DNA of 41,502 nucleotides, from contig JAIPGM010000013.1 of NCBI GenBank assembly GCA_021735655.1, positions 1 to 41,502 of the forward strand, read 5' to 3'. The notes under the pieces were generated by a model. It did no database searches. It had not been told where the DNA came from and saw nothing but the letters and a program-made list of their open reading frames with translations. Below are positions 127 through 41,502 of this stretch, piece by piece (position 1 is the first letter of the stretch; every line of letters starts with the position of its first letter). The stretch is from Candidatus Omnitrophota bacterium. GTDB lineage: Bacteria; Omnitrophota; Gorgyraeia; Duberdicusellales; 4484-171. Both the position numbers and the translations under genes were made by a program.

Positions 127-1389
127 TCATCTCCTTTTAATTTCAACCTCTATTGGCAAGTCTTCTTTAACTCCTTGTTGACTATCTTCAAAAATAATCA
201 TGCCTCGATAAAAACCTTCGCTTACTTCTTTAGGTATCTGTAATCTAAAAATGAAATTCTTCTCGCGGGCCGAAGGAAGCTTTAAATTTGTATATACTAG
301 TTCAAACCAATCTTTTATCTGGCCGCTAGCTGATAATTTCAAGTTTAACTCTTTATCTAGACGATTTAAAAGAGTGTATTGTTGACTACGCAAAACGCCA
401 CTTACAGTTTCGATTTTTATATCTTTTGGTATTACTTCTAAGGCCGAAAGCAAATTGCCTTGAGATTCTTGGCCGAATTGAGCAACTTTTACTGAAAAAG
501 GAAACTCCTTAACTAATCTACTCGGGCCACGATAGCTAAGACGCAGCTGAGCAATATAATCACCGGCAGCTAATGTATTTGGAAAATGACCAATGAAGTA
601 TCTTCCAGCATTCGCATAAACCATGCCCTTCCCGGATCTTAGGGTTACTTCTCCTTTTCGCTTCTTATCTTTAGTCATTATTAAAACTGTGGCCTCACCG
701 CGAAAATGAACGTTTCCAGTATTTTTAACTAAGGCTGCAAAAAAACTCCCTTTCTGATTAGGGAACTCCTTAACTACTTTTCCTTTTAATCCGTTCGCCT
801 CTACCTCAGTTAAACTTTTAGAATCAATTGGTCCAGAAAAATAAAAAAAATCGTTAACCTCAGCCTGTTTTATTAAAGGTTTACTGCCCTTAACCGTAAT
901 CTGCAATAAAGAGGCTAGACGAAAAGCAACCTTTAACCCCTTTTGAGTGGTCTCTTCTTCACCAATTGGCTCAAACATTACTGCTGCGTAATAGCCACCA
1001 GAAGGAGTTCCAGCCGGAACTCTTAGCCTTAAAGGTATTTTCTTGGTAGCTAAAGGTTTAAGGCTTATTATCTTATCACGCACCTCAATCCAGTTTCCAA
1101 CACCTTTAGGGTCATCGCTAGGTTCAAGAAAAACTAACTCCCCATCCTCGCTCATGTATACTGTCTCGATATAAACCTTAGCCTTTAAGTTCCCATCAGA
1201 CCCAGAATTAGTTAATCTCAAGATAAACGATCTTGAACCTCCAGGATTCGATATAATCTCCAAGCTCGGGGGCTTAACTACCAAAGAAAAGCCTTGAGCC
1301 TGATAAGGCCCAATTAGACAAAAAAGAGTCAAAATTATGAGTAATTTTCGCATTTTATTAGTCTTTATTCTTAACTCATTATATACCAA
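127..1389 (-). CDS. Secreted protein of unknown function with a signal peptide and three tandem ~120-aa Ig-like/PapD-MSP-like beta-sandwich repeats. Start codon is TTG.
   Basis: 420-aa ORF. Hydrophobic leader LLIILTLFCLIGPYQAQG. Three segments each carry an L-x-L-x-N-x-G style beta-sandwich pattern with alternating hydrophobic residues. No catalytic motif recognised. Confidence 0.5.
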   Translation of the reverse strand: MVYNELRIKTNKMRKLLIILTLFCLIGPYQAQGFSLVVKPPSLEIISNPGGSRSFILRLTNSGSDGNLKAKVYIETVYMSEDGELVFLEPSDDPKGVGNWIEVRDKIISLKPLATKKIPLRLRVPAGTPSGGYYAAVMFEPIGEEETTQKGLKVAFRLASLLQITVKGSKPLIKQAEVNDFFYFSGPIDSKSLTEVEANGLKGKVVKEFPNQKGSFFAALVKNTGNVHFRGEATVLIMTKDKKRKGEVTLRSGKGMVYANAGRYFIGHFPNTLAAGDYIAQLRLSYRGPSRLVKEFPFSVKVAQFGQESQGNLLSALEVIPKDIKIETVSGVLRSQQYTLLNRLDKELNLKLSASGQIKDWFELVYTNLKLPSAREKNFIFRLQIPKEVSEGFYRGMIIFEDSQQGVKEDLPIEVEIKRR

Positions 1390-1615: not shown

Positions 1616-1649
1616 AACCCTTCAGTCAATATTGCCTGAAGGGTTTTTT
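1616..1649 (+). terminator. Second terminator-like hairpin, paralogous to the first. It covers the TTG at 1632 and lies just upstream of the ATG at 1662.
   Basis: 8-bp stem CCCTTCAG/CTGAAGGG, 10-nt loop, followed by T6. The loop and 3' arm share ATTGCCT with the first hairpin. Confidence 0.5.
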
Positions 1650-1661
1650 AATTTAAAGACG

Positions 1662-1991
1662 ATGAAAAACACAAGTTTCTACACAAGACGATTTAAAGGG
1701 TTGATGGCGCTAGTATGCGGGGTTTCCGTGGTTGTGGGGGCATTTTTGGCCAATCCTTGCTATGCCAAGGAAAGTAAGAGTTTCAGCATCTCGATAACTA
1801 TTCCCAAAATCATAGAACAAGTAAATAAGCCTCTTAATCCCCCTCTTCTGAGAGCAGAAGAGCCTGAAGAAAAAGACACAGGGGAAAGGGACAAAAAAAA
1901 CGAAGTCGAAGCCGACGAGAGCAATTCAAACAAGCTAGACTACCCTGAAGGCTACACGATAATCGTTAAAACTATTGTCCAAGAGCCTTAA
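1662..1991 (+). CDS. Small secreted acidic protein (~109 aa with signal peptide). Only plus-strand gene in the window. The ORF-track start at 1632 (TTG, inside the hairpin) is replaced by the ATG at 1662.
   Basis: Start MKNTSFYTRRFKGLMALVCGVSVVVGAFLANPCYA is a typical signal peptide (cleavage after CYA). Mature region is rich in E/D/K. Sits directly downstream of the riboswitch and terminator structure. Confidence 0.5.
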   Translation: MKNTSFYTRRFKGLMALVCGVSVVVGAFLANPCYAKESKSFSISITIPKIIEQVNKPLNPPLLRAEEPEEKDTGERDKKNEVEADESNSNKLDYPEGYTIIVKTIVQEP

Positions 1992-2033: not shown

Positions 2034-2684
2034 TTAGGTTTGGAACAAAGTTAAAGTAACCTGTCCTAAATAGTCACCAGCTGGCTTATCCAAGCCAATT
2101 GGCAATACTCCTGGTGCGTCATTAGCATCGCCGGTACCAATGCCATAGAAAATTCTCAACCAACCACCAGCAAGCTCAAGATTAGTATAATCTATTCCAT
2201 CACTGTTAAGATAACTATACTTATTCAAATCAATAGCTGACTGTGGCCCCGTCTGCTTAACAAACACTACGTTGATATTCTGATCTAAGGTCTCCGTTCC
2301 ACCAGTTCTTACTACTGATGTCCTGGTATGTTGTATGGTCCAGCTAGGAACATTAGCAGTAATTCCGACGTCTACAGCATAGGTAAAGTCAGACCTAAAA
2401 ACATTATATTGAGAATCCAACCAAAGTTCTCCAAAGTCAACATTTCCAGCCGGAGACCAATTAGCACCAGCAATCTTGCTAATATCAACGTTAAACCCGT
2501 TCTGTTGCGGTATGTTGGCCTTGACATCATACTTGTCGGTTTGGAGGGCCGTTTGAGCAAAGCTAGTAAAAGCTAAGCTTAATGCTACCAAGAGCAAAAG
2601 ACTGATTTTGTAACTTTTTCGCCACATAACTACTCCTTTTTTTGTCTTGTCCGATTTCTGGACACTAAATATCAATAATCTCAA
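2034..2684 (-). CDS. Secreted beta-rich protein with a fimbrial-subunit-like C-terminal strand (SCPU/Csu/chaperone-usher pilin-like?). Function unknown.
   Basis: Signal peptide LLLLVALSLAFTSFAQT. Gly/Thr/Asn-rich beta composition. C-terminus PAGDYLGQVTLTLFQT resembles the G-x-Y-x-G-x-V-T-x-T-L-x-(Y/F) donor-strand motif of chaperone-usher/SCPU subunits. Confidence 0.45.
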   Translation of the reverse strand: MRLLIFSVQKSDKTKKGVVMWRKSYKISLLLLVALSLAFTSFAQTALQTDKYDVKANIPQQNGFNVDISKIAGANWSPAGNVDFGELWLDSQYNVFRSDFTYAVDVGITANVPSWTIQHTRTSVVRTGGTETLDQNINVVFVKQTGPQSAIDLNKYSYLNSDGIDYTNLELAGGWLRIFYGIGTGDANDAPGVLPIGLDKPAGDYLGQVTLTLFQT

Positions 2685-8110: not shown

Positions 8111-8141
8111 TACCCCCTCTTTACTCTTTTATCTATTCTGT

Positions 8142-11093: not shown

Positions 11094-11149
11094 ACTCTAA
11101 GTCTATCAACCTCAAGTCTTAGTGTCAAGAATAAATTTCTCTGAAAAAC

Positions 11150-11176: not shown

Positions 11177-11180
11177 TCCT

Positions 11181-17295: not shown

Positions 17296-19305
17296 TTAAT
17301 AACCGTGTTGATCGCGTATTTTCTTTTCCAAAGAATTTGCCGCAGCCGTTGATATTAGCTGAAGCTTATTAATATATTCTTTTACTTTTGATCTATCTTT
17401 TTTCTGAGCATTAACGTTAGCTAAGGTAACATAACACTGCGCCCTTAAAATATCAAAATTCTTAGGAGCTGAGCCAATCATCATGAGAGCTTCCTCGGTA
17501 GACTCAATGGCAGCATCATAATATCCCTTCTTAGCATAACTCAAACCCATCATGTGCTGAGAACTAACCACCCCTTCTGTGGCGTAATAGTATTCCTCGC
17601 TTCCCTTTTCAGTTTTAGCTTGAGCTTTTTTAAAATAATCGACTGCTATCCTAAATTCACTATCTAGAATCGCCTTTTCGCCAGATTCAGTCAAATCAGC
17701 AACATCCATTTTAAGCTTACCATAAATCCGTTTCTGATCATCAGGACTATATACTCTTTGCTTATATATTTCATCTACATGCCACTCGTCAACATAGCCA
17801 CCAGCTTGCTTTCTGTAAGGCTTTAATCTAGCTAAAAAGGTATGACTAATTACTAACCCCAAATCAAGCGCCTGATCGCAATACCTAATTGCCATATCCG
17901 GCTGGTTATTTTCTAAATATATATGCGAAAGATTTAAATAAGCATGAGCATCATAAGGGTTAAATAAAATAGCCTTTTTAGTTTCATCAACTGCCTCTTT
18001 GAAATTCTTTTTCCGATAATGGGCCCAACCAAGGTTTTTATGGGCCATAGAGTAATCTGGCTCTAATTCTATGGCTTTTCTTAATATTTTAATCGCATCA
18101 TCAATTTTGTTTATCTTTTCGTAAGCTGCTGCCAAGTTACTGTAAGCAATGGCTTCTCTAGGAGCAACCTCAATTGCCCTCTTAAACTCTTTAATCGCTA
18201 GCTGACTTCTTCCTTGCTGAAAATAAGTTGCTCCGAGCTCGTTATATAAATGTATATTACTCGGATCAATAGCTAAAGCCTTCTTTAGTTGAGCTACGGA
18301 ATCATTTAACCTCCCAGTCGATGCGTAAAGAGCCGATAGATAGATATGGCCATCAATAAAGCTAGGGTCAGCCTCAACGGCCCTTTCAGCATAACGTATT
18401 GCCGCAGCTGAATTCTTTACATACATTTCATCCTTAGCTGATAAGAAATAATTGTAGGCTTTGCTTAACTTAGTAGCAAAGTCTCCCATGCTCATCCTTG
18501 AAGTAGAATTAAAAAAACGCTTAACATCGTTAATTGGAATAGCAAAGTTAACATTCTGACCTTCAGGTTTGATAAAGGTCGTTATGCCTACTACCTGACC
18601 AGAAACGTCGAAAAGCGGCCCACCACTGTTTCCCGGAGATATCGGCGCACTAAACTGCAATGCGTCTTGACCGGAGAATAAACGCTTGCCGCTATAAAGA
18701 CCTTCAGTTATTGAATATTCTAAACCTAAAGGGGCCCCGATAACCAAGACTTTACTCCCTGGCTGTAAATAATTGGAATTTCCTAAACTAACCGTAGACA
18801 AACCACTAACACCTATCTTAAGCATGCAAATATCCCTAACCACATCATAGTAAGCGATTTCGATTACTGGATAAGTGCGGCCATCCTTAAGTCTAACCTC
18901 TATATCTTCAGCCCCGCCAACAACATGAAAATTAGTTACGATTATTCCATTTGAATCGACGACAAACCCGCTACCCTGACTTCTACCATGAGCCGACATT
19001 GCCGAAATAACTACAATTGCTGGAGAAACTTGCTGAAACACTTCGGTCGGAGTTTTTTGTAAAATAATCGTTGGCTGCCTTTCTAAATCTGGATATGAAC
19101 TACCACTCGAACCAGAATCAATTCGCTCAATCTTATCGCGATAGTATTTAATCATTATTCCGTCGATATCGACACGAATTGAATCGCTATTTTGCTCAAC
19201 GATTCTCCCCCGAACTACCTTCCCGTTTTTAAGATAAATCGTCTCGGAGAAACTCGAAGTTACGAATAAAACTGTTAGCAATAAAACAACTATTACTTTT
19301 TTCAT
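17296..19305 (-). CDS. Secreted trypsin-like serine peptidase (S1C/HtrA-like catalytic domain) fused to C-terminal TPR repeats.
   Basis: Signal peptide. Catalytic triad context TNFHVV...DICMLKI...GNSGGP. At least six TPR-like units (AIDPSNIHLYNELGATYFQQGR...). Length 669 aa. Confidence 0.75.
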   Translation of the reverse strand: MKKVIVVLLLTVLFVTSSFSETIYLKNGKVVRGRIVEQNSDSIRVDIDGIMIKYYRDKIERIDSGSSGSSYPDLERQPTIILQKTPTEVFQQVSPAIVVISAMSAHGRSQGSGFVVDSNGIIVTNFHVVGGAEDIEVRLKDGRTYPVIEIAYYDVVRDICMLKIGVSGLSTVSLGNSNYLQPGSKVLVIGAPLGLEYSITEGLYSGKRLFSGQDALQFSAPISPGNSGGPLFDVSGQVVGITTFIKPEGQNVNFAIPINDVKRFFNSTSRMSMGDFATKLSKAYNYFLSAKDEMYVKNSAAAIRYAERAVEADPSFIDGHIYLSALYASTGRLNDSVAQLKKALAIDPSNIHLYNELGATYFQQGRSQLAIKEFKRAIEVAPREAIAYSNLAAAYEKINKIDDAIKILRKAIELEPDYSMAHKNLGWAHYRKKNFKEAVDETKKAILFNPYDAHAYLNLSHIYLENNQPDMAIRYCDQALDLGLVISHTFLARLKPYRKQAGGYVDEWHVDEIYKQRVYSPDDQKRIYGKLKMDVADLTESGEKAILDSEFRIAVDYFKKAQAKTEKGSEEYYYATEGVVSSQHMMGLSYAKKGYYDAAIESTEEALMMIGSAPKNFDILRAQCYVTLANVNAQKKDRSKVKEYINKLQLISTAAANSLEKKIRDQHGY

Positions 19306-30346: not shown

Positions 30347-30811
30347 TCATCCTCCTTTAATCATTATTTTTTCTTTTCCTAATTTTATTTTCTTTAAATC
30401 AATTTTAAAATTATTATCTTTAGCGCTTATCACTATCTTATCTACACCTACCTCTTTGAGCTCACCTTCCAGATACTCTTTGCCTTCGACCGGCTCATTT
30501 AACCATAATAAAACAAATCGGCCCTTAGCCTTTAAAAAATCTTTGTACTCCTTTAGCGGCCGGTCCAAACCGGGAGAATTTATCTCTACTCTGTAATCTT
30601 CAACCGGGATGCCTTCCTCAGTTAAGCGAAAAACAATTCTTTTATTCACTTCAGCGCAAGTCCTCAAAGTCACGCCGCCCTCAGGATAATCTACCGCACC
30701 ACGAATTGTTTTAGACGATCCTTGGATAACCTTTAAATCAATTAACTCAAGCTGGGCCTCCTTAACCACTGCCCCAACTATCTCCTCAATTCTTCCTTGG
30801 TTATCGGCCAT
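30347..30811 (-). CDS. rimP: Ribosome maturation factor RimP.
   Basis: SPGLDRPL motif. Position upstream of nusA. Length 154 aa. Confidence 0.85.
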   Translation of the reverse strand: MADNQGRIEEIVGAVVKEAQLELIDLKVIQGSSKTIRGAVDYPEGGVTLRTCAEVNKRIVFRLTEEGIPVEDYRVEINSPGLDRPLKEYKDFLKAKGRFVLLWLNEPVEGKEYLEGELKEVGVDKIVISAKDNNFKIDLKKIKLGKEKIMIKGG

Positions 30812-31961
30812 ATTCAGTCTTTAGAAAATTAATCAGCTCTTGGCTCTTAAAGCTCATCTTTTTACCGTCTGACCGAGCTTCTAAATCTATAGTTTTATCG
30901 TTTAAATACTTCTTACCAATAACTGCAATATAAGGATTACCTAAAAGATAAGCATCGTTAAATTTAACTCCAGCAGCTTCATTGCGTTCATCAACTAAAA
31001 CTGAAAACCCAATTTGTTCTAGCTCTTTCGACAGTTTTACCGCTTCTTCGATAAGTTTGTCGTTAAGTACAACTAGAGTTAAATCAAAGGGAGCTAAGCT
31101 CTTAGGCCAGATAAGCCCTTTTTCGTCAGAGTTTAGCTCGGCAACCGCAGAAAGAATCCTGCTCACTCCAATACCATAACAGCCCATAATGAAAGGTAAT
31201 CGCTTTCCTTTTTCATCGACAAAAAGGGCATCTTGAGCAAGAGAATACTTTGTGCCTAATTTAAATATATGGCCGATCTCAATCATTTTCTTTCCGTCAA
31301 CAATATCTTCGCCAATTTCACCGGCAACCATGAACTCATGGGAAGCACTACCCCCCATTGCTCCGGAATCAGCCTCAATCATAACAAAATCTAAACCACA
31401 CTCTTTAAATATACTTTTATAAGCCGAAAGCATCTTTTGGTAGTTTTTATCCAACCCTTCCTCATCTTTATCAAAACTGTAAGCATCTTTCATGATGAAC
31501 TCACAACTCCTCATTAAACCGAATCTTGGTCGGGGTTCATCTCTAAACTTAGTCTGTATCTGATAGAGTATCGTCGGAAGCTGTTTATAGGAAGAGATCG
31601 ACCTCTTCACAATCTCAGTAATCTCCTCTTCATGGGTGGGCCCCAAACAAAGCTGACGCTTCTTTCTATCTTTAAAAGTAAACATAACCTCGGCCAAATC
31701 TTTATCTCGTCCGGTCTTCTGCCAAATTTCAATTGGTTGAAGAGCGCTCATAAATATTTCTTGAGCACCAGCTGAATTCATAGCTTTGCGAATCAAATTA
31801 TTTATCTTGGTTAAAACCCGCCAGCCCAAAGGAAGATAAGAATATATCCCCGAAGAAACCATAAACAAAAAGTTTCCTTTCAGTAAAAGCTTATGGCTTT
31901 GACACTCGGCTGTCTTTGGATCTTGACGCAAAGTAGTAATGAAACTTTCAGAGAATAACAT
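30801..31961 (-). CDS. proS: Proline--tRNA ligase, bacterial-type N-terminus but minimalist (386 aa), apparently lacking the INS editing domain.
   Basis: Motif 1 region LPLGWRVLTKINNLIRKAMNSAGAQEI. Motif 2 FRDEPRPRFGLMRSCEFIMKDAYSF. Motif 3 GCYGIGVSRIL. C-terminal anticodon-binding domain. Only ~40 residues separate motif 2 from the GH/motif-3 region. Confidence 0.85.
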   Translation of the reverse strand: MLFSESFITTLRQDPKTAECQSHKLLLKGNFLFMVSSGIYSYLPLGWRVLTKINNLIRKAMNSAGAQEIFMSALQPIEIWQKTGRDKDLAEVMFTFKDRKKRQLCLGPTHEEEITEIVKRSISSYKQLPTILYQIQTKFRDEPRPRFGLMRSCEFIMKDAYSFDKDEEGLDKNYQKMLSAYKSIFKECGLDFVMIEADSGAMGGSASHEFMVAGEIGEDIVDGKKMIEIGHIFKLGTKYSLAQDALFVDEKGKRLPFIMGCYGIGVSRILSAVAELNSDEKGLIWPKSLAPFDLTLVVLNDKLIEEAVKLSKELEQIGFSVLVDERNEAAGVKFNDAYLLGNPYIAVIGKKYLNDKTIDLEARSDGKKMSFKSQELINFLKTEYGR

Positions 31962-31981: not shown

Positions 31982-33232
31982 TTAATCTTTAAATATATTT
32001 TCATTTATTTTTATTCCCTTCTTTTTAAACAATGAGAAGAAATTCGGTTTACCATAGGCTTTGAATTTACCTTGAGAAACTAAATCTTCACTCACCCCTT
32101 CTGATTCATAACGAAAAATATCTTTAAGAATGATATGGTTATCTTTTAAGTCCTGCACTTCAGTAAGATAAGTTATCTTTCGTGAACCGTCAATAAGTTG
32201 CTCGTGTTGAACAATTAAATCTAAACCATAGGCAATCTGCTCACGAATCGCCCAAGTAGGCAAATTAAGGCTTGCATAAAGTGCTGTAGTCTCTAAACGA
32301 GTTAGGGTGTCCATTGGATTAGAAGCATGAATTACCGCAAGTGAACCCTTATGTCCGCTATTTAAAGCCTGAAGATAATCCATCGCCTCCTCACTTCTAA
32401 TTTCCCCCAAAATAATTCTGGTCGGACGCATACGCAGGGTATTGCAGAATAAATCCCGAATAGCAACTTCACCCTTTCCCTCAATATTCGGCGGACGAGT
32501 CAAAAGACGTACAACATGATCCTGGCGTAAAGTCAACTCCAAAGCATCCTCAATAGTAATAATCCGCTCATCAGGACCAATCGAAGAAGAAAGTACCTCT
32601 AAAGTCGTAGTCTTACCGCTTCCAGTAGCTCCGGAGAAAAGAATATTAGCCCTAACTTTAATGCAAGCAGTTAAAAACTCAGCCATCCGATCGTCAATCG
32701 TGCCTAATTTCACTAAATCGTTAACAGTTTCGATCGAACGTAAAAACTTTCTAACGGTTACCGTTGCTCCACCCACTGAAAGCGGCGGCAAAATAACATT
32801 TACCCGGGAACCGTCTTCTAGAGCAAAATCAACATAAGGATAGCTCTCATCAACCCTTCTTCCGGTAGGTTGAATCATCTTTTCAACGATATATCTTAAG
32901 TGGTCGCTGTTTTCAAATTTTATTTTAGTCTTGCCTTTTTTGCCGGCTTTTTCGATATATACCTTTTCGGGGCCATTAATCATAATTTCAGTTATGTCTG
33001 GGTCATCCATCAGCTTCTGTATCGGACCTAAGCCGGTATAATCAGCGCATAAGGACTGAATTATTTGCTCCTTATCTTCCTTTTTAAGATCAAGATAATG
33101 ACCTTGTTCAACCTTATGCTTGAAAAAAAGTTCGGCTCGCTCACGAATAAAATCTTCACTTAATTTTTGTGCCTCACCGACCCAAAGACTTATCTCTTTT
33201 CTGACGTCATTCTTAATTTTACCTAGATCCAT
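31982..33232 (-). CDS. CpaF/TadA-family secretion ATPase (type II/IV secretion NTPase, VirB11-like), orphan.
   Basis: Walker A SGATGSGKTT. IITIEDALEL. GEIRSEEAMDYLQALNSGHKGSLAVIHASN (CpaF His-box). Length 416 aa. Confidence 0.8.
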   Translation of the reverse strand: MDLGKIKNDVRKEISLWVGEAQKLSEDFIRERAELFFKHKVEQGHYLDLKKEDKEQIIQSLCADYTGLGPIQKLMDDPDITEIMINGPEKVYIEKAGKKGKTKIKFENSDHLRYIVEKMIQPTGRRVDESYPYVDFALEDGSRVNVILPPLSVGGATVTVRKFLRSIETVNDLVKLGTIDDRMAEFLTACIKVRANILFSGATGSGKTTTLEVLSSSIGPDERIITIEDALELTLRQDHVVRLLTRPPNIEGKGEVAIRDLFCNTLRMRPTRIILGEIRSEEAMDYLQALNSGHKGSLAVIHASNPMDTLTRLETTALYASLNLPTWAIREQIAYGLDLIVQHEQLIDGSRKITYLTEVQDLKDNHIILKDIFRYESEGVSEDLVSQGKFKAYGKPNFFSLFKKKGIKINENIFKD

Positions 33233-34358
33233 GTCCGGTCACCCCCCTTAGCAAATCATCAATTACCTTTCCCTGGCTAGTTCGTTTTAAAATTTTATCA
33301 CCCTTGAAAATTACAGCTTTGTTTTTACCAAAAGCTGCACCGATATCAGCCTGTCGGGCTTCACCTGGCCCATTAACCACACAACCCATTAAAGCAATTT
33401 CTAAAGGTTCTTCCACCTTTGCTTTCTCAAGCCTTTTTTTAAATTTATCTACTATATCTATTAAATTAACCTCACAGCGCGAACAAGTAGGACAAGATAT
33501 AATTTCTGGACCGAACCGCCTGAGGTTAAGTGCCTGAAGAATTTGCTTGGCTATGCGGACCTCCCAAAAAGAAGGAGCAGTCAATGACACTCTTATAATA
33601 TCACCAATACCTTCATTAAGCAAAGCTCCCAAACCTACCGATGACTTAACGGTACCCTCTAAAAATGGCCCAGTGGCAGTAACCCCCAAATGCAATGGGT
33701 AATTATATTTTTTAGCAAAAAGCTTGTTGGCCTGAACTGTCGATGTCACGCTAGAGCCTTTTAAAGAAAACATTAAATCAAAAAAAGCCTCAGCTTCAAA
33801 TAGCTTAAGATAATTTTCGCAGGATTTAACCATCGCCTGGGCCAGCTTTGTCGGTGTCGCAAATTTTCTTTTAAATCCTCCTGAGTTAACCCCAACACGA
33901 ATCGAAATTCGATTAGCTTTAGCCGCCCGAATGACCTCTTTAACTTCTTTTGGTTTAGATATATTCAAAGGGTTCAGTCGAATCGCATCAAACCCCTGAT
34001 CAATTGCTGCGAGAGCTAACCGATAATCAAAGTGAATATCCGCAACAAAAGGAAGTTTAGTTTGTTTTCTTAAAGTTGAAATTAGCTTGGCATCTTCAGC
34101 AACTCTTACCGCAAGACGGACCGCCTCAGCTCCTTCGGTGTCAAGCTGCCTTAATTCTTTGACTAAATTTCTAACGTCTCGGGTCGGCGTCTTTAGCATT
34201 GCCTTTATCCTTATCGGATTTGCCCCTCCTACCTTTAACTTTCCAATTTTTACTGTTTTAGTTTTAAATCTATTCACTAGTTTTTCCCTGTAATTTATTC
34301 CAAACTTGGACACTACCATTTGATATATTGCTCCAAGTCTCAGAACCAAACCTGACAA
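33219..34358 (-). CDS. ispG: 4-hydroxy-3-methylbut-2-enyl diphosphate synthase (GcpE). True start probably internal.
   Basis: KTVKIGKLKVGGANPIRIKAMLKTPTRDV aligns with the IspG N-terminus. C-terminal 4Fe-4S ligands CPTCSRC...GCVVNGPGE. The ORF-track start overlaps the rseP end by 89 nt. Confidence 0.85.
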   Translation of the reverse strand: MSGLVLRLGAIYQMVVSKFGINYREKLVNRFKTKTVKIGKLKVGGANPIRIKAMLKTPTRDVRNLVKELRQLDTEGAEAVRLAVRVAEDAKLISTLRKQTKLPFVADIHFDYRLALAAIDQGFDAIRLNPLNISKPKEVKEVIRAAKANRISIRVGVNSGGFKRKFATPTKLAQAMVKSCENYLKLFEAEAFFDLMFSLKGSSVTSTVQANKLFAKKYNYPLHLGVTATGPFLEGTVKSSVGLGALLNEGIGDIIRVSLTAPSFWEVRIAKQILQALNLRRFGPEIISCPTCSRCEVNLIDIVDKFKKRLEKAKVEEPLEIALMGCVVNGPGEARQADIGAAFGKNKAVIFKGDKILKRTSQGKVIDDLLRGVTGHGSR

Positions 34359-35655
34359 TATCGTTATAGGTAATAAATACGAAAAGTATACCCAAGAGAG
34401 TTAATCCGACCCGGGTTGCGAAATCTTCTACTTTATCGCTGGCTGGTTTCCCTCTTAGTTTTTCAATAAACAAAAATAAAATATGCCCACCGTCTAATAC
34501 CGGAATCGGAAACAAATTGATTATCGCTAAACTTATATTTAAAGCCGCCATAAGCTGCAGCACAGCGACAAAGCCAACCTTTATGTATTCAGAAGTAATA
34601 TAAAAAATACCGATTGGTCCGGCTGCCCCCTCCTTAAACGATATGGTTCCGGTAATGATTGCCGAAAAACCCTTCAAGATATCGGCAGTTAAGCCAAAAA
34701 GAGTCTCGGTGCCCTTTAAAAAGGCTTTAAAAAACGGGTATCGCTTAAACTGAACCTCAGCATAAGGACCGATTCCGATTAAAGACACTAACTCTTTTTT
34801 GCCATCAGAATTAGTAATTTCGTCTTTTTTAACGTCGGTAACTACTGATATAATTTCACCTTCTCGCTCAATAGTAAGTGATACCTTATCCTTAGTTTTA
34901 TGAATAAGTTCGGCCATCTCTTTCCAACTGTCTACATAGACACCACCGACAGCCACAATCTTATCACCTTGCTTTAAACCGGCTTCTTTAGCCGGATATT
35001 TTTCCAGCAAGTTCCCGATCGTGGTATTACGATAAGGGAAAACTCCCAACATCGAAACCGTAACCTTTCGGCCAAATTCATCGGTGATCTCTTCCTGTTT
35101 AAGAGATGTTAACACTGATATAATTTGGTCACCTCTCTCAACTGAGAGTGAAACCTCACCTTGGGACTTGTGAATTTTTCTCTCTAACTCTCTCCAACCG
35201 GTTATCTCTTTACCATTGACAGCCACAATCCGGTCACCTTCTTCCAGGCCGGACTCATGAGCCGGATAATCGCTAAAGGCACCACCGATAACCGTATCCT
35301 GATAAGGAAAACCAATTAAAGCAATCAGCCAAAATATAATTAAAGCAAATAAATAGTTAAAAAATACCCCGGCAAAAACTATTTTCCCTCTTATCCCGGG
35401 TGATTTCGATAAAAACTCATCCGGTTTGCCTTCAGATTCAGAACGGTTATCGCCGGCTAGCTTCACATATCCGCCCAAAGGAAAAATACAAACTAAAAAT
35501 TCTGTTTCCTTACCTTTAAACTTAAATAGAGGTGGGCCAAAGCCTATTGAAAACTTTTCGACCCTAACTCCGGAATGACGTGCGGCGATAAAATGTCCAA
35601 ATTCATGAACCACAATAAGAATACCAAAAATTACAAGGGTTAACAGAAAACTCAT
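34270..35655 (-). CDS. rseP: RIP site-2 metalloprotease RseP/YaeL with two PDZ domains.
   Basis: HEFGHF zinc motif in the first TM helix. Two PDZ repeats. C-terminal LDGGH. Conserved position after dxr. Confidence 0.9.
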   Translation of the reverse strand: MSFLLTLVIFGILIVVHEFGHFIAARHSGVRVEKFSIGFGPPLFKFKGKETEFLVCIFPLGGYVKLAGDNRSESEGKPDEFLSKSPGIRGKIVFAGVFFNYLFALIIFWLIALIGFPYQDTVIGGAFSDYPAHESGLEEGDRIVAVNGKEITGWRELERKIHKSQGEVSLSVERGDQIISVLTSLKQEEITDEFGRKVTVSMLGVFPYRNTTIGNLLEKYPAKEAGLKQGDKIVAVGGVYVDSWKEMAELIHKTKDKVSLTIEREGEIISVVTDVKKDEITNSDGKKELVSLIGIGPYAEVQFKRYPFFKAFLKGTETLFGLTADILKGFSAIITGTISFKEGAAGPIGIFYITSEYIKVGFVAVLQLMAALNISLAIINLFPIPVLDGGHILFLFIEKLRGKPASDKVEDFATRVGLTLLGILFVFITYNDIVRFGSETWSNISNGSVQVWNKLQGKTSE

Positions 35656-36806
35656 AGTTTATTTATCCTTTCTTCGGTTTTTCTTCTAGCCCACTTATCC
35701 CAATAAAGAACATCATTAACGTTCTTAATATCACAAGATGGGTAAATCTTAGAGATATGAGCTATGATTTTATAAATATCAGTAAACTTTATTTTTCCTT
35801 TTAAAAAATGATCAATTGCCACTTCGTCAGAGGCATTTAGGACTGCCAAACCATTATCTTGTTTCTTAGCCGCTTCAAGGACTATTCTTAGCAAGGGATA
35901 ACTCGCATAAGGAATTGGTTTAAAGTTATAGGAAAAACTACCTCTAAAGTTAATTTTCTGATTCTGAGCTTTACGCTTCGGATAATGAAGGGCGAAAGAA
36001 ATCGGCATCTTCATATCCGGTGGATAAATACAAGCAAAAAGAGTACCATCGGTTTTTTCAACTAAAGCATGAATTGCTGATTCACGGTGCAAAAGAATAT
36101 CGATTTTTTCATAAGGCAAACCGAAGAAAAAATGAGTTTCAATAACTTCAAATGCTTTATTTATTAAAGTAGCGCTATCTACAGTTATCCGCGCACCCAT
36201 CTTCCAGGTTGGATGATTTAAGACCTCGCTTACGCTCACCCGAGATAAGTCTTTCTGCTTATAGCCGAACAATGCACCTCCGGAAGCAGTAAGATAAACC
36301 TTACCCAGACTTCCATTGGTTAAAGATCTTTTCTCTTCAAAAAGCTGGAACAAAGCATTGATCTCGCTATCCACCGGTAGAATCTCGGTATTATGTTTGG
36401 TGGCTTTTTTAAAAACTAAATCACCAGCGGTAACTAAAGACTCCTTATTAGCTAAAGCTACTCTCTTGGTATATTTTATATTTTCTAGAAGAGGCAATAG
36501 CGATGAAACACCGGAAATTGCCATAAGAGAAATGTCTGACTCTAAACTCGAAAACTCCAACAAACCCTTCTGGCCGACAAAAAGCTTTATGCCTTTGGGT
36601 AACTCTGACTTCAAGCGCTTAGCCCTAGCCTCATCATTAACGCATACATAGGAAGGATGAAACTCCTTAATCTGACGCTTAAGCGTAGTTATATCTTTGT
36701 TAGCCGTAAGACCAATGACTTTGAATTCATTTTTGGTCTTACGAATTACCGCTAAAGCATTCCTGCCAATTGAACCGGTTGAACCGAATATTAATACTTT
36801 TTTCAT
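35652..36806 (-). CDS. dxr: 1-deoxy-D-xylulose 5-phosphate reductoisomerase.
   Basis: KVLIFGSTGSIGRNAL NADPH site and Dxr core blocks. Length 384 aa. Confidence 0.9.
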   Translation of the reverse strand: MKKVLIFGSTGSIGRNALAVIRKTKNEFKVIGLTANKDITTLKRQIKEFHPSYVCVNDEARAKRLKSELPKGIKLFVGQKGLLEFSSLESDISLMAISGVSSLLPLLENIKYTKRVALANKESLVTAGDLVFKKATKHNTEILPVDSEINALFQLFEEKRSLTNGSLGKVYLTASGGALFGYKQKDLSRVSVSEVLNHPTWKMGARITVDSATLINKAFEVIETHFFFGLPYEKIDILLHRESAIHALVEKTDGTLFACIYPPDMKMPISFALHYPKRKAQNQKINFRGSFSYNFKPIPYASYPLLRIVLEAAKKQDNGLAVLNASDEVAIDHFLKGKIKFTDIYKIIAHISKIYPSCDIKNVNDVLYWDKWARRKTEERINKL

Positions 36807-36813: not shown

Positions 36814-37605
36814 TCAACGCATCATAGTCAAATATAGATAAAAAGTCGGAGCAGTAAAAATTAAACTGTCCATAACATCAAGAACTCCACCCATGCCAGG
36901 AAGAAGCTTACCTGAATCCTTTACCTGACAATCCCGCTTTATTAAAGACTCAAAAAGATCTCCCAGCTGAGCGACAATAGCTAAAATAATAATTAGGAAA
37001 AACTTCTCCCAAAAATTAATACTTCCAATAAACAACGAAAAAACAACACCTACTCCTAAACTAGTAAAAAATCCTCCGATTGCACCCTCAAGAGACTTTT
37101 TGGGGCTTATCCTTCTAATAAGTAAAGTTTTACCGAAGTTCTTTCCCCAAAGATAGGCTCCCATATCCGAAGACTTGGTGACCAAAATTAAAAACCCGGT
37201 AAGTAGCGCCCCCTCGGGAAGCTGTCTTATCCTGATTAAAAAAGAAAAACACCAGGAAATATAAATAACCGCAAAAACAGTTGCCGAAATTGACAGCACC
37301 GACTGATGAGTCTCTTTTTTAGTAAGTTCTAATAAAAACAAAATAAAAAGAGCTATAACAACAAACATGAATTGCCAGCCTTCACCGGGAGAAAAACCAA
37401 AATAAATAGTCACCGGTATCAAAGCTCCAACAAAAAGCCCTAAAGGCTTGAACATTTTCACTCCCTTCTTTTCAACCATATAGAAAAACTCATAAAGCCC
37501 GATAACAATCAACAAGGTAACGAACAAACCACACAAGGGATAGTAAAAAAGACAAAAAATAGTAAGCGAAATCAAAATAATTGCTGGAGGTAATCGTTTA
37601 GCCAT
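36814..37605 (-). CDS. cdsA: Phosphatidate cytidylyltransferase. Start moved to the internal ATG at 37605.
   Basis: Polytopic membrane protein with C-terminal LPGMGGVLDVMDS (CdsA signature). The ATG at 37605 has a GGAGA site 5 nt upstream and avoids the 77-nt overlap with uppS. Confidence 0.8.
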   Translation of the reverse strand: MAKRLPPAIILISLTIFCLFYYPLCGLFVTLLIVIGLYEFFYMVEKKGVKMFKPLGLFVGALIPVTIYFGFSPGEGWQFMFVVIALFILFLLELTKKETHQSVLSISATVFAVIYISWCFSFLIRIRQLPEGALLTGFLILVTKSSDMGAYLWGKNFGKTLLIRRISPKKSLEGAIGGFFTSLGVGVVFSLFIGSINFWEKFFLIIILAIVAQLGDLFESLIKRDCQVKDSGKLLPGMGGVLDVMDSLIFTAPTFYLYLTMMR

Positions 37606-38302
37606 GAATCTCTCCGTATCGGCGCTCTCTGGCTGAATAGGCAGCAACTGCTTTTTTGAGTTCGCTGTGATCAAAATCAGGCCAAAAAGTCTCGGTGAAG
37701 TAAAGTTCGCTATACGCTAAATTCCAAAGCAGAAAATTACTTATCCTCTGCTCCCCTGACGTCCTGATTAAAAGATCCGGCTCGGGATCATCCCCCAAAG
37801 AAAGATAACTCCCGAATGTCTTTTCATCTATGTCAGATTCGGTTAATTTTTTATTAATACAATCAGACACTATACCTCTGGTGGCTCCTACGATATCCCA
37901 CCGTCCTCCGTAATCTATAGCAATATTAAAGAAAAAACTCTTATGATTTTCGGTAAGATTTTCTAGTTCTTTGATTTTATTTACCGTTGTTTTTTTAAGT
38001 TTTGACTTCCGACCGATAACTTTTAGTCTTATCTCTTCCTTCATCAATTCCTTTTTGTAATCATCAAGAAACTTATCTAAGTAACGAAAAAGGAAATCGA
38101 TTTCTTTTTTCGGTCGATTCCAATTCTCGGTAGAAAAAGCAAAAATAGTAAGCGCCTGTACGCCTAGTTTCTTAGTCTCACGAACTATTTCTTTTATCTT
38201 CTCTATGCCTCGCTTATGGCCAGCTGTTCGCAAAAGGCCTTTTTTCTTTGCCCAACGGCCGTTTCCATCCATAATTATAGCAATATGTTGAGGAACTTCC
38301 AT
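37598..38302 (-). CDS. uppS: Undecaprenyl-diphosphate synthase (cis-isoprenyl transferase).
   Basis: HIAIIMDGNGRWAKKKG and FAFSTENWNRP motifs. Length 234 aa. Confidence 0.9.
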   Translation of the reverse strand: MEVPQHIAIIMDGNGRWAKKKGLLRTAGHKRGIEKIKEIVRETKKLGVQALTIFAFSTENWNRPKKEIDFLFRYLDKFLDDYKKELMKEEIRLKVIGRKSKLKKTTVNKIKELENLTENHKSFFFNIAIDYGGRWDIVGATRGIVSDCINKKLTESDIDEKTFGSYLSLGDDPEPDLLIRTSGEQRISNFLLWNLAYSELYFTETFWPDFDHSELKKAVAAYSARERRYGEIHG

Positions 38303-38324
38303 CCTAAGCCTGTTAGCGTTACCA

Positions 38325-38350
38325 ATTGATTAATTTATGTCACTAAAAAA
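38325..38350 (-). terminator. Strong intrinsic terminator ending the right-hand envelope cluster.
   Basis: On the minus strand, GGGGGC-CCCAAA-GCCCCC forms a 6-bp GC stem followed by T6. It lies ~50 nt after the stop of the 111-aa gene. It is the only GC-rich hairpin in this AT-rich region. Confidence 0.7.
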
Positions 38351-38401
38351 GGGGGCTTTGGGGCCCCCTCTTGCAAGAATACGTCGGCTACTATGGTTAA
38401 A

Positions 38402-38737
38402 TTAACGTTCCCCGAGCTTCTGCCTCATTAATTCTTCCTTCAAATTATCTTCCAGCTTATCTTTAAGCTTCTCAAGCTTAGAATTCTCTAAACTCAAAGA
38501 TTCTAGCTGAACATTCAAAAGGGTAATATCTTCCTTTAGCTTATCATTATCACCCTGGATAGTCTCTATTGTCTTTTTTAGATCTTCAGTGGCCTTTTCA
38601 CAGCTTATGTTCTTAGCAAGCTGTTTTTTGTATTCACTAGACAAAGAATTCATTTTAACCAATATCGACACACCGGCAATCACCAGAACAACGATTAAAC
38701 CGATCAAAAGACTTATAATTAATGGGCTATCTTTCAT
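38402..38737 (-). CDS. N-terminally anchored (single TM) coiled-coil protein.
   Basis: TM helix LIISLLIGLIVVLVIAGVSILV followed by a heptad-rich Lys/Glu/Leu sequence. ATGA overlap with the upstream OmpA-like gene. Confidence 0.55.
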   Translation of the reverse strand: MKDSPLIISLLIGLIVVLVIAGVSILVKMNSLSSEYKKQLAKNISCEKATEDLKKTIETIQGDNDKLKEDITLLNVQLESLSLENSKLEKLKDKLEDNLKEELMRQKLGER

Positions 38738-39366
38738 TTTAACTCCTCCTCTTCTAGCTGCGAGCCTAAAGGATCTGCCTTCTTAACCACCTTAGGTAAA
38801 ATTACAATCTCTACGCGTCGATTCGTCTGTCTACCTTCAGGGGTGTCATTAGATGCAACTAACTTGTATTCTCCATAGCCAATCGCTGACAACCGCAAAG
38901 GATTAATTCCCTCTTCTTCAAGATAATAAAGCACACCAAGAGCACGTTGAGCTGAAAGCTCCCAGTTTGTTTTCCAACGAGAGAATTTTATTGGTTCGTT
39001 ATCGGTGTGGCCTTCAATCCCAATATCATTGTCGGGAACTTCCGATTTGAGGATTTTGATAACCTTATCTAAAATTGGTAAGCTCTCTTTTCTTAGCTTA
39101 GCTTTTCCTGAATCAAAAAGAACTTCAGCAACAAAGGTTATCACTAACCCCTTCTCAGCCATCTCAAGGCGTACCTGTTTATCCTTTATCTCACCGGACA
39201 GCCTTTTTTCTAAAAGCTGCTGGGTACTTTTTAGCTCTTGAAGCTCACTTTTAAGCACCTGTATTTTTTCGAGATCTGAACGTCTTCCTTTTTGAAAAAC
39301 TATCGCACATCCGTTAAGAACAAAAACATAAATAACTAATAACAAAAGGCCTTTTTTGTTCATCAC
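38734..39366 (-). CDS. OmpA/MotB-domain lipoprotein with a central coiled coil.
   Basis: Lipobox VLNGC. C-terminal OmpA-like peptidoglycan-binding domain (GHTDNEPI...NWELSAQRALGV...NRRVEIVI). Confidence 0.75.
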   Translation of the reverse strand: MMNKKGLLLLVIYVFVLNGCAIVFQKGRRSDLEKIQVLKSELQELKSTQQLLEKRLSGEIKDKQVRLEMAEKGLVITFVAEVLFDSGKAKLRKESLPILDKVIKILKSEVPDNDIGIEGHTDNEPIKFSRWKTNWELSAQRALGVLYYLEEEGINPLRLSAIGYGEYKLVASNDTPEGRQTNRRVEIVILPKVVKKADPLGSQLEEEELK

Positions 39367-39518
39367 AACCTCACTCTTTATTTACTATTAGACTATAAGT
39401 TACTTACCATAAACAAACCAAAATTAGGTTATCATAATAGGCTTTACAAGTCAAGTAATTTGATACCTCAAAACTTACCCCCCTAACCTTCAAAACTCCT
39501 TTAAATAAAACAAATAAT

Positions 39519-39550
39519 AAGAGGCAACCCCAAAAGAAGAGTTGCCTCTC
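39519..39550 (-). terminator. Intrinsic terminator after the microprotein/lipoprotein unit.
   Basis: About 9-bp stem GAGGCAAC/GTTGCCTC with a 12-nt loop, followed on the minus strand by a TTATTATTTGTTTT T-rich tract, ~20 nt after the microprotein stop. Confidence 0.5.
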
Positions 39551-39570
39551 AACATATACTTTTTGCTATT

Positions 39571-39648
39571 TTATTTCTTAGGTTTAGCCTTCTTTTTAGG
39601 CTTCTTTTTAGGCTTACATTTACTCTTAGAACCACATCCACAAGCCAT
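39571..39648 (-). CDS. 25-aa Cys/Lys-rich microprotein MACGCGSKSKCKPKKKPKKKAKPKK (not in the ORF track).
   Basis: ATG preceded by a perfect AGGAGG with a 6-nt spacer. The upstream gene ends in tandem stops TAATAA directly abutting the SD site (minus strand reads TAATAAGGAGGTAACTCATG). TAA stop, then a terminator hairpin downstream. Confidence 0.45.
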   Translation of the reverse strand: MACGCGSKSKCKPKKKPKKKAKPKK

Positions 39649-39662
39649 GAGTTACCTCCTTA

Positions 39663-40007
39663 TTACTTTATAAGATTGTCCATTTTACTCTTAACATCGT
39701 TAACAGCCTGGCCGGCAGCTTCTTTTAAGGCAGTCTTGGCTTTCTCAAGAATACTTTTTGCATCTTGAGAATCTTTATCAACATATCTCAAGACATACTG
39801 GGCAAGATCAACTGCCTGCTGGAACTCTTTAGAATTATAAAAAGTTTTGGCCTGAGAAATTAAATAAGTCGCCTTCTCCTGAGTGTCTTCGATAGCTTTA
39901 GCAATGTTTATGGCTTCCTTACTTGATCCAGCTTTATTCGAACTGCAACCAACCAAAGATCCTGCTACAAAAATCCCCAACATTAGAACAATCAACCCTT
40001 TTCTCAT
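39663..40007 (-). CDS. Small helical lipoprotein of unknown function.
   Basis: Lipobox SLVGCSS. 114 aa. Predicted all-alpha, Ala/Lys-rich. Confidence 0.55.
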   Translation of the reverse strand: MRKGLIVLMLGIFVAGSLVGCSSNKAGSSKEAINIAKAIEDTQEKATYLISQAKTFYNSKEFQQAVDLAQYVLRYVDKDSQDAKSILEKAKTALKEAAGQAVNDVKSKMDNLIK

Positions 40008-40027
40008 ACTAACACCTCCCTATTACT

Positions 40028-40561
40028 TTAACCGTTCTTGTTTTTCAATAAACCAAAAAAGTTATAAACTCCTGATGCCCCTAAAAGACAATACCCCAAA
40101 AGAATCATCCAAAGTCCTAAACCAATTCTTACCTGTAAGACCAATTTATCCAAATCAGTAGTTTTAATTTTATAAACACCGACAAAAAATATTGCTAGGC
40201 CAACTATGCCAAAAGTAAGATACAGCCAACGGTTCTTTCCGAAAAACAAAACTAAAAGAAAAATAATAACCGCTAAAACCGGAGCTGCCCAGACGGCAAA
40301 GCTTTTCTTGTCGGTATTTTTTATGCCGGGATTAAATATCTGAATAATACTAATAACCAATCTTGAATCGGCGCCATTAGCCATAACCGGGATTTGAAAA
40401 CCAGAAATTGCCGCAATATTACTTTGTGCTTTACCGGTTAGAAGCTTTGATATTGCTCCTACCTGTTTTGATTCAACATGCACCCAAGGAAGAAAAAATC
40501 CTAAAACAATTATAACAACTGCCAAAAAAACTAATGATTTAAGTGCTACCTTCATTTCCAC
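40028..40561 (-). CDS. Integral membrane protein (~4 TM) of unknown function.
   Basis: 177 aa with four hydrophobic helices. No recognised motif. Confidence 0.5.
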   Translation of the reverse strand: MEMKVALKSLVFLAVVIIVLGFFLPWVHVESKQVGAISKLLTGKAQSNIAAISGFQIPVMANGADSRLVISIIQIFNPGIKNTDKKSFAVWAAPVLAVIIFLLVLFFGKNRWLYLTFGIVGLAIFFVGVYKIKTTDLDKLVLQVRIGLGLWMILLGYCLLGASGVYNFFGLLKNKNG

Positions 40562-40591
40562 GTCTCCTTGTTTTTGCAGAACTTTATCTAT

Positions 40592-40840
40592 CTATTTAGC
40601 AAACTTATTATACAACCAGGCTATTATAATTCCACAAATACCCGCATCTATAAATCCCCAAAAGCCTCCGATTAAACTTCCTAAGGTTGTAGCCTCATAG
40701 CCATAATAAATTGAACCCAGAGCTCTTACAAACCCACCCCCGTAGTTAAAAAACATTGCTACCATGCCCATAATTAATAAAGCTACCCCCCAAACAATAC
40801 CCAAAGTAAGCCCTAAAGCTTTTACATCTAATTTTGCCAT
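40592..40840 (-). CDS. Small 2-TM glycine-zipper membrane protein (GlsB/YeaQ/YmgE-like?).
   Basis: 82 aa. GxxxG-rich helices (GGGFVRALGS..LIGGFWGFIDAGICGIIIAWL). AGGAGG 4 nt upstream of the ATG. Confidence 0.5.
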   Translation of the reverse strand: MAKLDVKALGLTLGIVWGVALLIMGMVAMFFNYGGGFVRALGSIYYGYEATTLGSLIGGFWGFIDAGICGIIIAWLYNKFAK

Positions 40841-41053
40841 AGTTCCTCCTTATTTCTTAAAGGCTCTAATGACCTGAATAAAATTCTAGATTACCAAAAT
40901 TACAAATATATGATAGCTCCGGAAAAAGAATCGGTCAAATAGAAAAGAATAGTCCCCGGAAAGGATTTATATCAATTGGAGTTGGGATCCACTGAATTGT
41001 CTTATTCAAAGATATTACTATAAATTATTTATTTTATTTTTTTATATTCGTTA

Positions 41054-41359: not shown

Positions 41360-41502
41360 TACATCCTCCTATGTTAATTGTCCAGTATATTCTACTCTCA
41401 AAATATCAAGCCATTTATCGCAAGCCCTACATTAGGCTGGAGATAAATGGTAAACTTTTTTATCAGATTGTAATTTAAAATTACTAAAATCTTCAAATAC
41501 CC

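Follow-up and report, generated by a model that had tools for sequence, protein, structure and literature searches.

The 41,502-nt stretch of contig JAIPGM010000013.1 from Candidatus Omnitrophota bacterium (assembly GCA_021735655.1, positions 1 to 41,502; referred to as the window) carries a gene for a stand-alone motor ATPase of the CpaF/TadA family between the housekeeping genes ispG and proS. This gene, here called cpaF1, is widespread, strongly constrained and an old, fixed insertion into its cluster. Its product belongs to a clade of short CpaF-like ATPases and differs from the ATPase that is encoded in the Tad locus of the same phylum. The anatomy and the evolution of the ATPase are solid, while its function is what we infer: it may work in trans as an additional motor on a platform protein encoded elsewhere.

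Identity and architecture of the ATPase

The gene at 31982..33232 on the minus strand is an intact open reading frame (ORF) of 416 amino acids (aa) with an ATG start. Its product matched Pfam T2SSE (PF00437) over residues 66-342 with 178 bits (cut-off 24.9, E=2e-52), and the profile score together with the presence of all four motifs places it in the PilT/VirB11-like secretion ATPase superfamily. In a phmmer search of the PDB the top solved relative was Caulobacter CpaF with 317 bits over residues 51-404, while FlaI and VirB11 reached 142 and 109 bits, respectively. The match begins at chain residue 131 of the 501-aa CpaF. The AlphaFold2 (AF2) model, with a mean confidence (pLDDT) of 80.4, was superposed by Foldseek on the CpaF structures 8RJF, 8RKD and 9E24 over 411-413 columns with a template-modelling (TM) score of ~0.75 and 39% identity over 411 columns. 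Foldseek E-values were 1e-42 for CpaF, 1e-26 for FlaI and ~1e-13 for PilT; at a distance below CpaF, the fold ranking was FlaI, archaeal GspE, VirB11 and PilT. Thus, by sequence as well as by fold the ATPase is nearer to CpaF than to FlaI, VirB11, PilB or PilT, and the CpaF/TadA type proposed by the initial annotation is confirmed.

The best NCBIfam model was TIGR03819, the TadA of a 'helicase/secretion neighbourhood', yet its score of 276.4 bits was below the curated cut-off of 373.15. The same held for VirB11 TIGR02788 (198.6 bits, cut-off 249.95), TrbB TIGR02782 (175 bits, cut-off 304.55), FlaI NF058587 (189.5 bits, cut-off 550) and the PilT family (52 bits, cut-off 319). Because no curated cut-off was reached, the protein is a CpaF-family member outside of these named subfamilies, although it shares the superfamily with TIGR03819 TadA, FlaI and VirB11. 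A VirB11- or FlaI-type ATPase misread as CpaF was ruled out, as CpaF scored far higher and the VirB11, TrbB and FlaI cut-offs were not attained. The family itself was already known: the public record of the exact protein reads 'CpaF family protein [Candidatus Omnitrophica bacterium]'. The gene and its parts are as follows.

31982..33232, minus strand: cpaF1, stand-alone CpaF/TadA-family motor ATPase of the ispG-linked orthogroup, 416 aa (ORF, Pfam T2SSE, sequence and fold match in the PDB, orthologues)
33035..33226, minus strand: N-terminal three-helix bundle, residues ~3-66 (AF2 helices 3-18, 26-42 and 51-66; Foldseek alignment to 8rjf/8rkd)
32738..33034, minus strand: N-terminal (N2-type) domain, residues ~67-165, including loop 8 (alignment and AF2 model)
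32849..32863, minus strand: loop 8 motif G124-R125-R126-V127-D128
31985..32725, minus strand: C-terminal ATPase domain, residues ~170-416 (invariant alignment columns)
32609..32632, minus strand: Walker A, GATGSGKT, residues 201-208
32537..32569, minus strand: Asp box, ERIITIED, residues 222-229
32462..32500, minus strand: extended pore loop
32396..32425, minus strand: Walker B, RIILGEIR, residues 272-279
32324..32356, minus strand: His box, GH..H, residues 293-302

CpaF is built of a three-helix bundle, an N-domain and an ATPase domain (PMC12019362). Comparison of the AF2 model with 8rjf revealed the same order in the window protein, with a three-helix bundle that resembles that of Caulobacter CpaF minus its disordered N-terminal extension. 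All four motifs (Walker A, Asp box, Walker B and His box) are intact and do not vary across orthologues in alignments of 12 and 48 sequences, and the C-terminal tail KPxFFxLFKKKGIKIxExIF is conserved. A pseudogene was excluded by the intact ORF and motifs. The protein appears to have everything needed for an active hexameric motor, i.e. it would be expected to form hexamers and to hydrolyse ATP.

Caulobacter CpaF contacts its platform by loop 8 (G204, R205, R206 and D208) and by the extended pore loop (E331 and G334; PMC12019362). In the ispG-linked clade (n=63) the equivalents are kept in 59 sequences for R205, 56 for R206, 62 for E331 and in all 63 for both D208 and G334. The pore loop of the window protein reads TRPPNIEGKGEVA, and loop 8 and pore loop both agree with the CpaF/TadA family. 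The protein thus seems to retain the face by which extension-type ATPases engage a T2SSF platform. A preprint (10.64898/2026.02.24.707734) assigned a retraction-specific contact to a C-terminal face with, among others, P386 and R387, which mark a 'dual-orientation' CpaF. The P386 equivalent is present in 62 of the 63 ispG-linked proteins vs one of 11 ATPases from Omnitrophota Tad loci.

Age of the insertion and relation to other CpaF-like ATPases

The conservation of the arrangement was examined by two scans, the counts of which are samples and not censuses. One covered GTDB with one genome per species and the orthologue alignment as the query, the other was seeded with proS and hence independent of the ATPase; from each the best 80 of at least 600 matches were kept. 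ORFs in the loci were called by a simple longest-ORF rule, which over-extended some N-termini, and taxon labels are those of the depositors.

The order ispG-ATPase-proS was found in 59 of the best 80 GTDB loci, and three more had ATPase-proS on a contig that ends upstream. In these 62 syntenic loci the ATPase is 48-88% identical to that of the window. Every locus with a phylum label is assigned to Omnitrophota; the full synteny is shared by several third-party assemblies that go under 'uncultured Planctomycetia' or 'Planctomycetales'. Likewise, the 120 closest database proteins listed, at 63-100% identity, are from Omnitrophica/Omnitrophota wherever a source is named. The entire block uppS-cdsA-dxr-rseP-ispG-ATPase-proS-rimP-nusA-infB is present in the complete genomes CP070807.1 (1.82 Mb) and CP070684.1 (1.28 Mb) and on a 214-kb JGI contig. 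Relatives of the window organism accordingly keep the insertion, a point the initial annotation had put up for checking.

Conservation of the ATPase is about equal to that of nusA and infB. Median identities to the window in subclade A (defined below) were 67% for the ATPase, 57% for ispG, 63% for proS, 73% for nusA and 70% for infB; the corresponding values in subclade B were 54, 47, 52, 55 and 52%. The identity of the ATPase correlates with that of nusA (Spearman rho 0.63) and infB (rho 0.57). Its G+C content of 0.395 equals that of the neighbours in a region that is flat at ~0.39. Phylum-wide synteny, neighbour-like composition and an identity that tracks nusA and infB exclude a recent horizontal or mobile insertion absent from relatives, which had been considered at the outset.

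In the proS-seeded scan about 20 contigs of other phyla, which encode a long prolyl-tRNA synthetase (ProRS), have dxr-rseP-ispG directly before proS. Because ispG abuts proS there, the ATPase is an insertion into an older cluster, as the initial annotation had supposed. Five Omnitrophota-like contigs with a short ProRS and upstream sequence contain the ATPase (L089, L090, L091, L094 and L095; L090 lacks ispG between rseP and the ATPase). Two others, L092 (Ga0315282_10000167) and L097 (Ga0207433_10002389), run uppS-cdsA-dxr-rseP-ispG-proS-rimP-nusA-infB-trpS without an ATPase between ispG and proS. In its neighbouring genes L092 shares 62-77% identity with ATPase-bearing loci of subclade B, which indicates secondary loss or relocation in L092.

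The ATPases were compared in a distance-based, midpoint-rooted neighbour-joining tree of 226 sequences and 368 columns with 100 bootstraps. A search of a representative library had returned multi-stretch fusion or misjoined proteins as top matches and not the orthogroup of the query as such; it served as the source of outgroups and of six sequences, the P-group. The window ATPase is nearer to CpaF than to VirB11 or FlaI, and within the tree it falls into a clade of its own: 72 short CpaF-like sequences of 404-430 aa without an N-terminal accessory domain (100% bootstrap). Therein, subclade A holds 20 sequences including that of the window (77%) and subclade B holds 43 ispG-linked sequences (85%). 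L025, L027 and L039 from Verrucomicrobia and Acidobacteria form a 100% group, which joins subclade A with 86%. The P-group, six proteins of 404-429 aa from other metagenomes, is an outgroup lineage of the short clade (100% bootstrap); two of its members are named 'Alphaproteobacteria bacterium' by NCBI and its taxa are unassigned. TadZ::CpaF fusions of Omnitrophota form a separate clade (75%). The groups from outside Omnitrophota seem to nest within the ispG-linked set in this distance tree.

Two of the eight relatives examined outside Omnitrophota provide the sole gene-neighbourhood clue to function, and it points to type IV filament machines. In L039 (Ca. Sulfotelmatobacter, 1-11233) and L027 (Verrucomicrobiia, 2316-11233) a short ATPase of 410-415 aa follows a second ATPase of 523-546 aa, in L027 with a small ORF between the two. 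Opposite this pair lies a cluster with a secretin and a third ATPase of 537 aa; in L039 the latter bears an FHA domain and the cluster adds RcpC, TadB, TadC and an FHA protein. Both are three-ATPase Tad/Kil-like loci of similar layout beside an immunoglobulin (Ig)-like protein of 2200-2700 aa. Their short ATPases share 50-53% identity with the window protein from residue ~5 to ~410. The gene in L025 lies between a TpsB/TpsA pair and dnaK. Giant proteins as a shared neighbour of the short ATPases outside Omnitrophota were considered and dismissed, because there was no consistent theme: a TpsA exoprotein in L025, Ig-like proteins in L027 and L039, and a tetratricopeptide repeat (TPR) protein in L171.

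Eleven of the 18 non-syntenic loci among the best 80 are from Omnitrophota and encode ATPases of 670-729 aa. All of these 11 recovered Tad-type ATPases are of the long TadZ::CpaF type (L071, L074-L077, L079-L082, L084 and L086). In L074 (5617-21125), the only Omnitrophota Tad locus annotated in full, the ATPase joins a ParA/MinD-type (TadZ-like) domain to T2SSE; it is accompanied by a PpiC rotamase, RcpC/CpaB and a secretin that ends in a TonB_C domain, and further on by DUF192, TadE- and TadG-like proteins and T2SSF. West-Roberts et al. 2023 described a 'type II secretion-like' locus with gspD, gspE, gspF, rcpC and a Rotamase_2 isomerase upstream of giant genes of Omnitrophota; L074 has this same gene set, and Seymour et al. 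treated the locus as a Tad complex. The window ATPase is 45-51% identical to the ATPase part of the fusions, and two assemblies contain both genes on separate contigs, UBA2593 (L040 syntenic, L074 Tad) and CAYXSY01 (L085 and L086). The ispG-linked ATPase is thus a paralogue of the TadZ::CpaF fusion and a separate gene.

Another paralogue, cpaF2, was found directly between proS and rimP in ten of the 62 syntenic loci (L024, L030, L031, L034 at 12379-13608, L038, L044, L047, L060, L062 and L066), so that proS is flanked by two orphan ATPases there. The CpaF-like cpaF2 proteins of 400-446 aa are 38-45% identical to the window protein and form a clade with 99% bootstrap, which is a weak sister (33%) of the short clade. 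Their Walker motifs are present; the loop 8 aspartate equivalent to D208 is replaced in nine of the ten, and three copies have Arg or Gln in place of the first histidine of the His box. The window has no cpaF2, and rimP follows proS directly.

The genes around the ATPase

From ~2.0 to 41.4 kb all genes of the window are on the minus strand. The order of transcription is OmpA-like lipoprotein, DivIC-like protein, uppS, cdsA, dxr, rseP, ispG, ATPase, proS, rimP, nusA, infB, trpS, scpA, ruvB, tgt, trmD, rplS and rnhB. The genes and the junction that bear on the ATPase are listed here.

37598..38302, minus strand: uppS (Pfam on the identical Logan contig L001)
36814..37674, minus strand: cdsA (Pfam on L001)
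35652..36806, minus strand: dxr (Pfam on L001)
34270..35655, minus strand: rseP (Pfam on L001 and on the window protein)
33219..34358, minus strand: ispG (GcpE), upstream neighbour (Pfam GcpE E=1e-119; NCBIfam NF001540 379 bits, cut-off 345)
33219..33249, minus strand: ispG/ATPase junction with a Shine-Dalgarno-like AAGGGGGG at 33242..33249, the ATPase ATG at 33230..33232 and the ispG stop TAA at 33219..33221
30801..31961, minus strand: proS, downstream neighbour, 386-aa ProRS (Pfam tRNA-synt_2b and HGTP_anticodon; NCBIfam TIGR00409 514 bits in two stretches)

The start codon of ispG probably lies downstream of 34358, as the public gene call on L001 has 366 aa. Reading of the sequence confirmed the overlap given in the initial annotation: the ATG of the ATPase lies 14 nt inside the 3' end of ispG. 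The overlaps in L003, L005, L007, L008, L010, L019 and L020 are alike. From the stop of the ATPase to the start of proS there are 20 nt, and a simple consensus scan detected no terminator-like site at either junction. The ATPase is almost certainly co-transcribed with ispG, as had been claimed, and in addition translationally coupled to it. The one strong terminator-like hairpin on the minus strand (39551-39518) lies just ahead of the OmpA-like gene, with which the transcription unit may therefore begin.

The window was found to be devoid of Tad partners, in line with the initial annotation. T2SSF, Flp/pilin, prepilin peptidase or secretin had no Pfam match in the 20 window ORFs scanned, including all those without an obvious housekeeping identity, and the small ORFs and intergenic gaps of 38300-41502 yielded no pilin candidate. 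There are no helicase, type IV secretion or archaellum genes near the ATPase. With neither TadB/TadC, secretin, CpaB/RcpC, TadZ nor Flp in 41.5 kb the gene is not part of a tad locus, and by gene order Tad partners are also absent from the flanks of the 62 syntenic loci (up to 10 kb on each side where the contig allows).

At the head of the block 38734..39366 (minus) encodes an OmpA-family lipoprotein of 210 aa and 38402..38737 (minus) a membrane-anchored coiled-coil protein of 111 aa with a weak DivIC match. Of the syntenic loci in which uppS is included, about two-thirds have an OmpA-like gene upstream of it; the DivIC-like coiled-coil gene is detectable by sequence in the closest relatives only. 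In L005 (Ga0222626_1000006, 1-2897) the OmpA-uppS block is immediately preceded by a PilZ gene and the end of an ORF of more than 962 aa that extends beyond the locus. West-Roberts et al. reported this pairing of giant gene and pilZ, which here occurs beside the housekeeping cluster.

The two-stretch profile match of the 386-aa ProRS lacks the region from profile position ~221 to the C-terminal part, where the INS editing domain is located in long bacterial ProRS. The length of ProRS is 390-420 aa in relatives of the phylum vs ~560 aa in other phyla of the proS scan. The infB of CP070807.1 (L002/L013, 14201-15306) was called with only 369 aa, whereas relatives have 635 aa, and the genes after it are unrelated; truncation, a frameshift or an error in the long-read assembly could explain this.

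At the left end 127..1389 (minus), 1632..1991 (plus) and 2034..2684 (minus) encode predicted secreted or membrane proteins. Pfam assigned no family to 2034..2684 and 1632..1991, and a sub-threshold WxLIP_PGBD to the 420-aa product of 127..1389. The idea that the ATPase serves these proteins, described as secreted beta-proteins, found no support, since neither a family match nor a conserved linkage to the ATPase was seen. Finally, 17296..19305 (minus) encodes a 669-aa protein with a signal-peptide-like N-terminus, in which a trypsin-like (HtrA/DegP-type) protease domain is combined with a long array of TPRs.

Function and comparison with known motors

We propose that in an ancestor of Omnitrophota a short CpaF-like ATPase gene entered the block uppS-cdsA-dxr-rseP-ispG-proS-rimP-nusA-infB between ispG and proS, and has since been inherited vertically under strong purifying selection. 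Translational coupling to ispG would provide for its expression together with the housekeeping block. The product would form a hexameric motor that docks via loop 8 and pore loop on a T2SSF-type platform, with TadB/C of the Tad machine or the platform of another type IV filament as candidates. Its role would be that of an extra, constitutively supplied motor like the unlinked PilT/PilU of type IVa pili. We put the chances that the ATPase acts in trans as an additional motor on a platform encoded elsewhere at about even.

Several observations weigh against an additional platform motor. No partner of the ATPase was identified. The flanks of five of the six P-group genes (L087, L088, L169, L170 and L171) were read for up to 8 kb to each side and contain no gene for a pilus or for secretion, nor do the flanks of the verrucomicrobial L025 (likewise up to 8 kb). 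The R387 equivalent is present in five of the 63 ispG-linked proteins, the window having Met instead, vs 99 of 133 generic CpaF representatives and one of the 11 Tad-locus fusions, i.e. the retraction face as a whole is not kept. The loop 8 arginines and the pore-loop residues could owe their conservation to catalysis or to the packing of the hexamer instead of platform binding. According to Seymour et al., Tad components occur patchily across the phylum and are missing from several families including 4484-171; the metagenome-assembled genome named 4484_171 (L021), which by GTDB naming practice should belong to that family, nevertheless holds the ispG-linked ATPase. As the gene is missing from its site in L092 and L097, it is not indispensable there. 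Lastly, the placement of the short clade is by neighbour-joining only.

A share of these points would fit a co-opted ATPase with a platform-independent job, e.g. in a membrane or nucleic-acid process tied to envelope or translation housekeeping, in which the fold was kept and the partner changed. We regard this as the main rival, possible if doubtful. The stand-alone context in Omnitrophota and in six of the eight relatives examined outside the phylum speaks for it, as do the fixed site in a constitutive housekeeping block with a conservation equal to nusA and infB, the presence in a lineage reported as Tad-less, the retention in a genome of 1.28 Mb and the loss of R387. In the part of the KEGG orthology (KO) table of Seymour et al. 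considered here, K02283 (CpaF) occurs in two genomes, one of which has none of the five Tad entries K02279, K02280, K02282, K12510 and K12511; this is weak evidence in the same direction. On the other hand, the platform-facing loop 8 and pore loop are conserved, and the relatives L027 and L039 reside in Tad/Kil-like loci. Moreover, all characterised members of the CpaF/PilB/PilT/FlaI group use a PilC/T2SSF-type platform (PMC12019362 and established knowledge), platforms should be available because type IVa pili are near-universal in Omnitrophota (Seymour et al.), and the absence of the gene at this site in L092 speaks against an essential function in housekeeping.

Membership in the CpaF family, intact motifs and the lack of a local partner would also be expected of the detached sole ATPase of a distant tad or type II secretion locus without an ATPase of its own, the service suggested by the initial annotation. 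Yet all 11 Tad-type ATPases recovered are of the TadZ::CpaF type, L074 combines its ATPase with RcpC, secretin and T2SSF, West-Roberts et al. list a gspE-type ATPase in that locus, and both ATPases coexist in two assemblies. Measured by the refuting condition that the initial annotation had set, this speaks against its reading, and we consider a detached sole ATPase very unlikely. Hardly better are the prospects of a system of its own in which cpaF1 and cpaF2 are the halves of an extension/retraction or PilT/PilU-like pair and the second half was lost in the lineage of the window. Ten relatives do carry the well-defined cpaF2 clade (99%; weak sister of the short clade, 33%) between proS and rimP, but these are ten of 62 linked loci, the window is not among them, three copies lack the His-box histidine, D208 is not kept and no platform gene accompanies the pair, which makes this improbable. 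A recent horizontal or mobile insertion, a pseudogene or a misread VirB11/FlaI-type ATPase has nothing but the atypical position in its favour. In view of the synteny across the phylum, the composition shared with the neighbours, the intact ORF and motifs and CpaF scores far above those of FlaI and VirB11, its probability is negligible.

Returning to an additional motor in trans, the closest known relative is the single, bifunctional motor of Tad (type IVc) pili, called CpaF in Caulobacter crescentus and TadA in Aggregatibacter (PDB 8RJF, 8RKD and 9E24). The window ATPase shares its architecture, the four motifs, R-R-x-D of loop 8, E and G of the pore loop and the C-terminal tail. Unlike CpaF/TadA it is not encoded together with TadB/C, RcpA/CpaC, CpaB, TadZ or Flp, it lacks the ~80-residue disordered N-terminus of Caulobacter CpaF, does not conserve R387 and belongs to a separate clade of 404-430 aa. 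The Omnitrophota TadZ::CpaF fusion is from the same phylum and ATPase family and in two assemblies from the same genome. However, it has 670-729 aa with a ParA/MinD-type N-terminal domain (L074) and is located between secretin/RcpC and T2SSF/TadE/G-like genes. The extra ATPases of L039 and L027 are of the same short clade as the window ATPase, but are part of Tad/Kil-like loci and not of a housekeeping block.

PilT and PilU are motors often encoded apart from the pilus assembly genes; they act in trans on the PilC platform, which has its own assembly ATPase. The analogy is also drawn from PMC12019362 and the Whitfield preprint. For the window ATPase it is a working analogy only, since PilT/PilU are of another subfamily with a fold TM of only ~0.5, and the comparison gave no evidence for a retraction role.

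On a broader and more speculative level, the short clade might be a second dedicated motor class of Tad/Kil-like machines in predatory or host-dependent bacteria, or else a motor that has left pili to power a process constitutively needed in Omnitrophota. We advance this tentatively and think it rather unlikely. Either version would account for a housekeeping address kept across the phylum and solo occurrence in other lineages, as well as for the third ATPase in acidobacterial and verrucomicrobial Tad/Kil-like loci and the addition of cpaF2. If the second-motor version were true, Tad systems would be multi-motor like type IVa pili, as opposed to the single-motor system of Caulobacter.

The searchable literature contained no report of the phylum-wide ispG-proS position, the paralogy with TadZ::CpaF, the short stand-alone clade or cpaF2, which is no proof of novelty; nor did the literature searched mention an orphan CpaF in Omnitrophota or proteomics of V. 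archaeovorus on this gene. Current descriptions of Tad pili have a single motor, and it is actively studied how one CpaF can power both extension and retraction (PMC12019362; preprint 10.64898/2026.02.24.707734). Giant surface proteins and a predatory or parasitic way of life have been linked to the Tad-like locus of Omnitrophota (Seymour et al.; West-Roberts et al.). Within its block the ATPase ranks with the most conserved genes, and a conserved second class of CpaF-like proteins would lend itself to the study of multi-motor Tad systems or of a new use of the motor. For genome surveys it follows that a K02283 'CpaF' call in Omnitrophota does not indicate a Tad pilus.

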